Source: Escherichia coli (GTDB lineage Bacteria; Pseudomonadota; Gammaproteobacteria; Enterobacterales; Enterobacteriaceae). Taken from it: DNA of 64,000 nucleotides. The translations under genes and the position numbers were made by a program. This document shows positions 6,972-54,637 of the stretch, piece after piece; within the stretch, counting starts at the first letter, position 1, and every line of letters starts with the position of its first letter. Below the pieces are notes generated by a model. It searched no databases. It was not told the DNA's origin and saw only the letters and a list, made by a program, of their open reading frames with translations. Where the stretch lies: NCBI RefSeq assembly GCF_030013595.1, contig NZ_CP122768.1, one strand, 5' to 3'.

Positions 6972-7680
6972 AATAAATATCCTCCGGCATAGCCGGAGGT
7001 TTTTCAAATGCGCCTGTAAGGCTCTGTTACCAGCCGCGCCCTAACAGGCGCATACGATCTGACATTTGCATTCAACTTCGTTACTTACGGCCCGTAAACG
7101 GGCTGCCCGGATATGGAATCGATAACTGCTCCCCCATTTTATCCTCTTCAAGCTGGTGCTTTATGTAGTCCTGTATCTTCGCCGTGTTCTTACCCACCGT
7201 ATCGACATAGTACCCTCGGCACCAGAACTCCCTGTTTCTGTATTTGAATTTCAAATCCCCAAACTGCTCGTAAAGCATCAGACTGCTTTTCCCTTTCAGA
7301 TATCCCATAAAGCCGGATACGCTCATTTTGGGTGGGATTTCCACAAGCATATGGATATGATCTGCGCAGCACTCTGCTTCCAGAATCCGTACGCTTTTCC
7401 ACTCACACAGCTTTCTCAAAATACTGCCTATCGCCCTACGCTTCTCTCCGTAAAACGCCAGTCTTCGGTATTTCGGCGCAAAAACTATGTGATATTTACA
7501 GTTCCAGCGGGTGTGCGCTAAGCTCTTTTCGTCCCCCATTGGGACCCCCTTTTGATTTCTTGTTTGACACTTGCAGTTGCCAGACCGCAAGGTGTTTTAA
7601 CAAATCAAAAGGGGTTTTAATAACTGGCTCAAAGCTGAAAGCTTTCCGGAACCCCCAGCCTAGCTGGGGGTTTTCTGTGC
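6972..7680 (-). mobile_element. IS200 insertion sequence (IS200/IS605 family), about 707 bp; ends estimated to within roughly 10 bp
   Basis: Contains tnpA (7081-7539); subterminal hairpin 7652-7670 (cccccagc/gctggggg); stem-loop 7546-7614 pairing the Shine-Dalgarno sequence; hairpins 6981-6999 and 7008-7053 at the other end; rlmB-to-yjfI spacing is about 710 bp longer than I expect for the native intergenic region. Confidence 0.8.
7081..7539 (-). CDS. tnpA: IS200 transposase TnpA (Y1/HUH single-strand transposase), 152 aa
   Basis: ORF 7081..7590 trimmed to ATG at 7539 (MGDEKSLAHTRWNCKYHIVFAPKYRR...HIHMLVEIPPK...); HxH motif and catalytic Tyr region recognisable. Confidence 0.9.
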   Translation of the reverse strand: MGDEKSLAHTRWNCKYHIVFAPKYRRLAFYGEKRRAIGSILRKLCEWKSVRILEAECCADHIHMLVEIPPKMSVSGFMGYLKGKSSLMLYEQFGDLKFKYRNREFWCRGYYVDTVGKNTAKIQDYIKHQLEEDKMGEQLSIPYPGSPFTGRK

Positions 7681-24988: not shown

Positions 24989-25064
<76 letters not shown>

Positions 25065-25099: not shown

Positions 25100-25175
<76 letters not shown>

Positions 25176-25332: not shown

Positions 25333-25408
<76 letters not shown>

Positions 25409-39780: not shown

Positions 39781-40314
39781 ATGCGCCTGCTCCCTCTCGT
39801 TGCCGCAGCGACAGCTGCATTTCTGGTCGTTGCCTGCAGTTCTCCTACGCCGCCCCGTGGCGTGACCGTAGTGAATAATTTCGATGCTAAACGCTATCTC
39901 GGTACCTGGTATGAGATTGCCCGTTTTGATCACCGCTTTGAACGTGGACTGGAAAAAGTCACCGCAACATACAGCCTGAGGGATGATGGCGGCCTGAATG
40001 TCATTAATAAAGGCTATAACCCTGACAGAGAAATGTGGCAGCAGAGTGAAGGGAAAGCGTACTTTACCGGCGCACCAACTCGCGCTGCGCTGAAAGTGTC
40101 ATTCTTTGGTCCTTTCTATGGCGGTTATAACGTTATTGCACTCGATCGGGAATACCGCCATGCGCTGGTTTGCGGCCCGGACCGCGACTACCTGTGGATA
40201 CTCTCCCGCACGCCAACCATTTCTGACGAAGTGAAACAGGAGATGCTGGCAGTCGCGACCCGGGAAGGGTTTGATGTCAGTAAGTTTATTTGGGTACAAC
40301 AGCCCGGTAGTTAG
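39781..40314 (+). CDS. blc: Outer-membrane lipocalin Blc, 177 aa
   Basis: Intact ORF; lipobox VVACS; lipocalin GTWYEIA motif. Confidence 0.9.
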
Positions 40315-40628
40315 TGAGTGCTGAGTTTCAGACCAATAATCCCCAATACGATTAACGCCAGACTCGCCAGGCGCATCGGGTTAGCGGACTCGCCGAGCAG
40401 CACAATGCCGGTGATGGCCGCGCCGACTGCGCCAATACCCGTCCACACGGCATAAGCCGTCCCTACTGGTAACGATTTCATCGCCCAGGCAAGTAGCGCC
40501 ATACTGACAATCATCGCCGTCACGGTAATAACACTTGGCGTCAAACGACTAAAGCCGTGGGTATATTTCAGGCCAACGGCCCATACCACTTCCAGCAGAC
40601 CAGCAATAACTAAGATAATCCAGGACAT
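40311..40628 (-). CDS. gdx: SMR-family guanidinium exporter Gdx (SugE), 105 aa
   Basis: ORF 40311..40691 trimmed to ATG at 40628 ([22 protein letters not shown]...); four-TM SMR protein. Confidence 0.9.
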
Positions 40629-40644
40629 ATCAGGCTCCGGAGAA

Positions 40645-40691
40645 TTGGGGCCGTCCCCGGTGAAAAGAGGCGTTTGCAGGTCGTCCTGCAA
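40645..40691 (-). ncRNA. Guanidine-II riboswitch (mini-ykkC motif) in the gdx 5' leader
   Basis: Minus strand reads two GC-stem hairpins with ACGR loops, gcagg-ACGA-cctgc (40676-40689) and gggg-ACGG-cccc (40647-40658), joined by a 15-nt linker, about 20 nt upstream of the gdx ATG. Confidence 0.7.
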
Positions 40692-40802
40692 AGCTGATGG
40701 TTGAACGGATATTTTGCCAGGTGGCAGGGGAATTTCAACTATTACCTTTGTGACTATCGCAAAAAAACAAACGGCACGACATAACTGTCGTACCGTTATT
40801 GC

Positions 40803-40949
40803 TTACTGCTGCGCTTTCGTTGCTGCGCCAGAAATCGCGTTACCGCCATCAGAAATGTCTTCACCAACGCCACGCGTGGTGTTGCAGGCAGTTAATACTG
40901 TTGAAAGCACCAGAACAGAAAAGATCGCTGCAATTGTCTTCTTCACCAT
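40803..40949 (-). CDS. ecnB: Entericidin B small lipoprotein, 48 aa (below the ORF-track length cutoff)
   Basis: Hand translation of the minus strand: [48 protein letters not shown]; lipobox LTAC. Confidence 0.85.
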
Positions 40950-41059: not shown

Positions 41060-41185
41060 TTAGCTGGCAGCGCGGGAGATGGAATTACCGAGATGTTTAA
41101 TGTCTTCACCAAAACCGCGAGCGGTGTTACAGCCCGTGAGCAGCGCACTGGCAAGCAAAACAAGAACGATAAGGCGTTTCATCAT
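41060..41185 (-). CDS. ecnA: Entericidin A small lipoprotein, 41 aa (below the ORF-track length cutoff)
   Basis: Hand translation of the minus strand: MMKRLIVLVLLASALLTGCNTARGFGEDIKHLGNSISRAAS*; lipobox LTGC; paralogue of ecnB. Confidence 0.85.
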   Translation of the reverse strand: MMKRLIVLVLLASALLTGCNTARGFGEDIKHLGNSISRAAS

Positions 41186-54561: not shown

Positions 54562-54637
54562 GCCCGGATAGCTCAGTCGGTAGAGCAGGGGATTGAAAAT
54601 CCCCGTGTCCTTGGTTCGATTCCGAGTCCGGGCACCA
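54562..54637 (+). tRNA. pheU: tRNA-Phe (GAA)
   Basis: gcccggatagctcagtcggtagagcaggggattgaaaatccccgtgtccttggttcgattccgagtccgggcacca, 76 nt, followed by hairpin ggacctcc/ggaggtcc plus TTTTT at 54653-54678. Confidence 0.95.

Follow-up and report, generated by a model that had tools for sequence, protein, structure and literature searches.

The window, meaning the whole 64-kb stretch of E. coli chromosome that was analysed, carries the gene order ampC-blc-sugE(gdx)-ecnB-ecnA-efp-epmB according to RefSeq, and 5424 of the 5426 complete E. coli genomes share a 511-nt block around the sugE (gdx) leader. In this region, the following features were assigned on the minus strand:

40311..40628, minus strand: coding sequence of gdx (sugE) for 105 aa, from the ATG (40628-40626) up to and including the stop codon (open reading frame list and RefSeq annotation of the identical locus)
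40635..40638, minus strand: Shine-Dalgarno (SD) sequence GGAG (read from the sequence and marked as SD in Fig. 1 of PMC13064478)
40646..40692, minus strand: complete guanidine-II (mini-ykkC) riboswitch aptamer (RF01068 model positions 1-48 of 48)
40647..40658, minus strand: P2 hairpin, 4-bp stem GGGG/CCCC with an ACGG loop at 40654-40651 (sequence and Rfam alignment)
40659..40672, minus strand: linker CGCCUCUUUUCACC, 14 nt, pyrimidine-rich (sequence)
40673..40692, minus strand: P1 hairpin, 8-bp stem UUUGCAGG/CCUGCAAA with an ACGA loop at 40684-40681 (sequence, pairing probability ~1)
40711..40738, minus strand: promoter-like site, TTGAAA, a 16-nt spacer and TG-n-CAAAAT (consensus scan 9/12, extended -10 TG)
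40770..40797, minus strand: ecnB intrinsic terminator, a 12-bp stem followed by TGTTTTTTTG, just 3' of the ecnB stop codon

Read along the minus strand, the leader has the order CAUCAGC UUUGCAGG-ACGA-CCUGCAAA CGCCUCUUUUCACC GGGG-ACGG-CCCC AAUUCUCC GGAG CCUGAU AUG UCC UGG, with 6 nt between SD and ATG and 18 nt between P2 and ATG. P1 begins 19 nt downstream of the promoter-like site, from which a transcript start near 40704 with a leader of about 76 nt is predicted; the TTGAAA hexamer of this site is also kept in a Citrobacter-type plasmid copy of the locus. The strong ecnB terminator forms the upstream boundary of the gdx unit. It parts this unit from the entericidin pair ecnB/ecnA, which encodes a 48-aa and a 41-aa lipoprotein (toxin and antitoxin) at 40803-40949 and 41060-41185 on the minus strand, directly upstream of gdx. 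RefSeq/PGAP annotates no riboswitch feature at the identical locus (40311-40692) and uses an outdated gene name, "quaternary ammonium compound efflux SMR transporter SugE", in place of guanidinium exporter Gdx. The 47-nt structured RNA could be recognised from the raw sequence alone, though it is missing from this annotation.

The 105-aa product was assigned to the SugE/Gdx equivalog by the model NF008512 (193.5 bits against a cutoff of 126, residues 1-104) and contains the SMR domain (Pfam PF00893, 115.3 bits), and all Qac and EmrE models run against it scored far below their cutoffs. Tolerance phenotypes connected with Gdx cover guanidinium, quaternary ammonium compounds, ionic liquids and Cs+.

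A search of the window with Rfam covariance models matched RF01068 (Guanidine-II) to 40692-40646 over the whole model, with 50.4 bits against a gathering score of 32 and an E-value of 5.2e-7 for 64 kb, both strands and 4227 families, or 3.2e-9 in a local search. The models for guanidine-I, -III and -IV gave no match at the gathering score in the window and none at E <= 1 in 40500-40900. Both ACGR loops are closed by G-C pairs (GGACGACC at 40686-40679 and GGACGGCC at 40656-40649), and the octamer GGACGRCC occurs only in these two places in the 64-kb window, at 3.3 expected occurrences. The arrangement GGACGRCC-N22-GGACGRCC has a single occurrence in the window, whereas no copy turned up in 100 shuffles, and the two-hairpin arrangement is therefore above chance level.

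The original prediction had read the gdx leader as a guanidine-II riboswitch with two ACGR-capped GC-stem hairpins immediately before the SD and ATG, and this identity is upheld by the RF01068 match, the SugE/Gdx equivalog downstream, a leader identical to that of K-12 and a P1 identical to that of PDB 5NDI. Both hairpins, the SD and the ATG are in place, but the term GC-stem does not suit P1, in which four of the eight pairs are G-C and four are A-U (P2 consists of four G-C pairs), and "immediately" is an approximation for the 8 nt between P2 and GGAG. The region given, 40645-40691, was correct except that the model match lies one base off and that the minus strand had been omitted; the linker exists as proposed, but with 14 nt in the Rfam alignment (13-15 nt with other choices of the stem ends) instead of 15 nt. 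The leader was not found to fold into one long hairpin, as P1 forms with a probability of ~1 and P2 is one of two near-isoenergetic alternatives. Nothing was found against the identity of the element as a guanidine-II riboswitch, and we regard it as close to certain that it is one and acts as a translational ON switch.

This riboswitch class was reportedly predicted in 2007 and validated in 2017 by Sherlock et al. The 116-nt leader of the window is 100% identical to that of K-12 MG1655, and a 70-nt core is identical in 3160 genomes. A P1 oligonucleotide, UUUGCAGGACGACCUG(BrC)AAA, has been crystallised with guanidine (PDB 5NDI; PMC5486947), and this 20-mer exactly matches window positions 40692-40673. 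The 49-nt "Gdn49" studied by NMR and SAXS (PMC9300104) and the 47-nt construct studied by smFRET (PMC9094411) are both sugE aptamers with the native linker; these 47-49 nt RNAs retain the native P1-linker-P2 and differ from the window only by engineered 5' G substitutions. NMR detected two new G-C pairs upon ligand binding and ACGG was reported as the weaker ligand site (PMC9300104), and smFRET revealed an intramolecular kissing state dependent on the ligand (PMC9094411). The exact E. coli sequence is a model system of structural biology, and the riboswitch itself is already known down to atomic structure, with no new biology coming from this element. In comparison with the E. coli sugE/gdx representative of RF01068, all features match (ACGR hairpins, G-C closing pairs, 14-nt linker, SD and Gdx gene) and no difference was found; the loop combination ACGA/ACGG, with the weaker ACGG, might be a tuning feature. 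Guanidine-I (ykkC, RF00442), -III (RF01763) and -IV (mepA) respond to the same ligand and accompany the same kinds of gene (Gdx/SugE exporters and operons for guanidine carboxylase; PMC5558903, PMC12186494), but their folds and sizes are unrelated, -I and -IV acting on transcription termination and -III being a pseudoknot.

We were also interested in how far the element is kept among relatives. RF01068 scored above its gathering score (38-50 bits) in nine other Enterobacterales gdx leaders, those named being from E. albertii, two Citrobacter, E. cloacae, three other Enterobacter and Superficieibacter, and in the copy from a CMY plasmid. P2 is unchanged in all nine of these leaders and the GGAG SD is kept in 9/9 enterobacterial leaders. 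The linker stays pyrimidine-rich across the nine, with an unconserved sequence of 12-17 nt; within the family its length is known to vary, most linkers having at least 13 nt (PMC5486947). A scan of 100,044 species genomes with the pattern GGACGACC-N14-40-GGGACGGCCC gave at least 123 matches, which were sorted by the downstream gene alone. Among the matches listed (123), 38 precede a Gdx homologue and 12 the N-terminus of a urea/guanidine carboxylase of about 1200 aa, the two classic gene associations of the guanidine-II family. About 60% of the 123 matches listed were chance occurrences in G+C-rich genomes, having neither the P1 extension nor a related gene, and the unassociated matches served as an internal negative control. 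Among the matches listed, the three P1 pairs left unconstrained by the pattern form in 98%, 96% and 90% of the 50 gene-associated matches compared to 53%, 47% and 48% of the 73 unassociated ones, and show 5-7 pair types in the gene-associated set. In this set, again among the matches listed, the fourth P2 pair is formed in 50/50 with five pair types, and the flank between the fixed motifs measures 16-36 nt. For the 48 distinct gene-associated hairpins among the matches listed, the P1 covariation score was 0.632 compared to 0.164 in shuffles (reached by 0/500) and at most 0.23 with slid partners, and six of eight P1 pairs change on both sides; two inner pairs of P1 and three pairs of P2 were fixed by the search pattern.

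The Citrobacter-type blc-sugE module was located on 685 plasmids in PLSDB at 60-80% identity. In the copy from blaCMY plasmids, P1 and P2 are unchanged, with divergence in the promoter spacer, the linker and the P2-SD spacer. As blaCMY plasmids carry blc-sugE with an intact riboswitch, the exporter moves together with its guanidine control; a riboswitch on plasmids of this type has been described previously (PMC12186494). One example is plasmid NZ_CP023900, with an intact guanidine-II riboswitch at 1549-1593 of the locus extract (47.2 bits). On the CMY-42 plasmid, a sok antitoxin RNA (RF01794, 96.9 bits; 464-621 of the locus extract) was detected about 0.9 kb upstream of the sugE riboswitch, adjoining finQ.

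In the accepted model, guanidine-II RNAs are translational ON switches in which guanidinium bound by each ACGR loop and the pairing of the loops make the ribosome-binding site accessible (PMC5558903, PMC9300104, PMC12186494). Applied to this leader, scarce guanidinium would leave the SD GGAG and the AUG tied up in competing pairs, with little Gdx being produced. With abundant guanidinium, one ion would occupy each ACGR tetraloop, and the ion-bound loops would pair head to head via their C and G bases to form a P1-P2 kissing complex, which would lock both hairpins, block the inhibitory pairing and let ribosomes initiate translation of the exporter. For binding, loop dimerisation and in vivo induction we draw on the literature on this RNA, next to the architecture, family match, gene association, and conservation with covariation observed here. 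The bases that cover the SD, and any dependence of the large mRNA effect on the effect on translation, are inferred. In vivo, Gdx-dependent resistance to Cs+ was increased by guanidinium added to the medium, an effect taken by the authors as induction of gdx through the riboswitch, and the 20-bp deletion of strain ZX-1, AGAATTGGGGCCGTCCCCGG (plus strand, window 40641-40660 or equally 40639-40658), removes P2 and was associated with constitutive gdx mRNA at a log2FC of 6.08 (~68-fold, n=1), as reported in a 2025 paper (PMC13064478).

As the partner of the SD in the ligand-free state, the linker has been proposed and called a putative anti-SD (PMC9300104, PMC9094411). In K-12, however, linker and SD can form only 4 bp, CUCU with GGAG, and this pairing is weakened further by the variant C40669G. 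The P. aeruginosa riboswitch (Reiss and Strobel, 2017) belongs to the same family, has the same kissing-loop pocket and is likewise a proposed translational ON switch (PMC5558903); there, the proposed partner of the SD is the linker together with the 5' side of P1, whereas folding predictions for E. coli favour the strands of P2. With ViennaRNA, the two-hairpin state was calculated at -29.3 kcal/mol and an alternative with P2 unfolded at -29.9 kcal/mol, and P2 as one of two near-isoenergetic alternatives is expected for a switch. In this alternative fold, the 3' strand of P2 is predicted to pair with G's of the SD (40638, 40637 and 40635) and its 5' strand with the G of AUG and codons 2-3 (40626-40620). 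In the predicted free ensembles of the window leader and of 7/8 relatives, the SD is mainly bound to the 3' strand of P2, with a summed SD pairing probability of 2.6-3.0 of 4 nt compared to at most 0.22 with the linker.

It is thus possible, if still tentative, that the strands of P2 and not the linker mask the start site, GCCCC pairing with the SD (GG-G-CC) and GGGGAC with GUCCUGG, and that kissing would free both. Such masking agrees with ZX-1, in which P2 is lost and the linker retained and gdx is still derepressed (PMC13064478), a combination that fits repression by P2 strands better than a linker anti-SD, and also with a linker of unconserved sequence next to a P2 and a GGAGC that are kept. 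P2 would be conserved anyway for ligand binding, and its conservation is therefore uninformative on an anti-SD role. Moreover, the basis of the idea is purely thermodynamic prediction, the SD-P2 pairing is lacking in Enterobacter sp. Bisph1 (one of nine leaders), and when both hairpins are locked the predicted fold still has the SD paired, now to the early coding region, leaving a net difference of 0.8 kcal/mol in the cost of opening the ribosome-binding site between the free and the P1/P2-locked ensemble. Nearest-neighbour folding thus yields no clear switch, and its opening costs also separate the wild type neither from the derepressed ZX-1 nor from natural deletions described below. As the energy differences are small and wild type and ZX-1 are not separated, no new mechanism is claimed.

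That the main output of the riboswitch is mRNA abundance and not translation initiation alone, the untranslated leader being lost to Rho-dependent termination or RNase E, appears unlikely to us. The ~68-fold rise of gdx mRNA upon the P2 deletion in ZX-1 (PMC13064478), the report that guanidine-III riboswitches govern the access of RNase E (reviewed in PMC12186494), and a linker that is C/U-rich and G-poor all point in this direction. However, the RNA-seq data are of n=1 from strains with different plasmid backgrounds (PMC13064478), and in E. coli translation is itself expected to raise mRNA levels secondarily. As the ZX-1 effect was read on mRNA with n=1, control may or may not be purely translational, and its ~68-fold size would allow for a secondary layer of control by Rho or RNase E.

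A consensus scan also flagged P1 (40692-40673) followed by CGCCTCTTTT as terminator-like, and P1 with its U-rich tract could in principle be an intrinsic terminator or attenuator, which would imply transcriptional control. This is very improbable, since the T-run is short, interrupted and starts 4 nt past the stem, and P1 is folded in the ON state, the opposite of what a terminator in an ON switch requires. The reading was rejected because the U-tract is unconserved in relatives that retain the riboswitch, being absent from E. cloacae (GCGCAUCACUCAUC) and Enterobacter sp. Ag1 (GCGCAUCUCACACC). Finally, the chance of a fortuitous hairpin pair, or of a segment of an N-terminally extended Gdx starting at the in-frame TTG 40691 (126-aa ORF), is practically negligible: a covariance-model E-value of 5e-7 and a motif in 0/100 shuffles argue against the former, and the latter, despite an open frame from 40691 to 40311 in the ORF list, was dismissed as a mechanical artefact, because the SugE profile covers residues 1-104 of the product initiated at ATG 40628 (105 aa), the P2-to-SD spacers of relatives (4, 5, 8, 9, 11 and 18 nt) and their linkers of 12-17 nt are unlike a conserved frame, and the frame would be disrupted by the 14-, 16- and 29-nt natural deletions, which leave the gene intact.

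Across the sampled E. coli, P2 is intact, changed by one SNP (STB20-1) or deleted in four natural isolates. The four deletions, found among complete E. coli genomes, are independent and keep P1, SD and ATG in every case, and in three of the four almost nothing besides P2 is lost:

EC488: 16 nt removed, CACCGGGGACGGCCCC
EC5502: 14 nt removed, CCGGGGACGGCCCC
2020N21-110 and two derivative assemblies: 15 nt removed, ACCGGGGACGGCCCC
Strain 167: 29 nt removed, comprising linker, P2 and AATT

None of the four deletion alleles reaches the gathering score of RF01068. They resemble the 20-bp deletion of the laboratory-selected ZX-1, a further derepressing riboswitch mutation from such a selection (PMC13064478); derepressing riboswitch mutations in E. 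coli had also arisen in laboratory selections according to PMC12186494, which cites Higgins 2019. All four alleles (4/4) come from human urine, sampled in China (two), Taiwan and the USA. As a crude baseline, 37 spread records were used, 16 of them human, and urine was the source of 3/12 human-host genomes for which it was looked up, giving about 11-19% urine isolates overall. With p about 1e-4 to 1e-3 from a small sample with phylogeny uncontrolled, the urine origin of the P2 deletions is suggestive, and an enrichment is not claimed. A stronger reading, to which we give little credence, is that P2 may be a recurrent target of derepressing deletions in human urinary-tract E. coli, which would imply selection for constitutive Gdx export as well as repression by the P2 strands. 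If this were true, selection in the urinary tract might act, e.g., against guanidino compounds or excreted biguanide drugs, and the strands of P2 rather than the linker would repress translation. Together with the riboswitch carried on blaCMY plasmids, the natural P2 deletions could be of modest practical interest.

Single-base changes were observed as well. In STB20-1, the P2 strand GGGG is changed to GAGG (40657), by which one P2 pair is lost and the RF01068 score falls to 38.9 bits, and in FORC064 the SD GGAG is changed to GGTG (40636). The linker change C40669G is common (O157 and others), and a spacer change, C40642T, is also present in the E. coli population.

Elsewhere in the window, a full-length match to STnc490 (RF01405, an Hfq-binding sRNA family) was obtained at 7549-7672 on the minus strand, with 146.4 bits against a gathering score of 56. 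Three identical tRNAs with the anticodon GCC (Gly) are clustered on the minus strand at 24992-25064, 25103-25175 and 25336-25408, and a tRNA with the anticodon GAA (Phe) lies at 54562-54634 on the plus strand, the anticodons having been taken from the Rfam alignments. The Gly cluster and the Phe tRNA are consistent with the glyVXY and pheU loci of E. coli.
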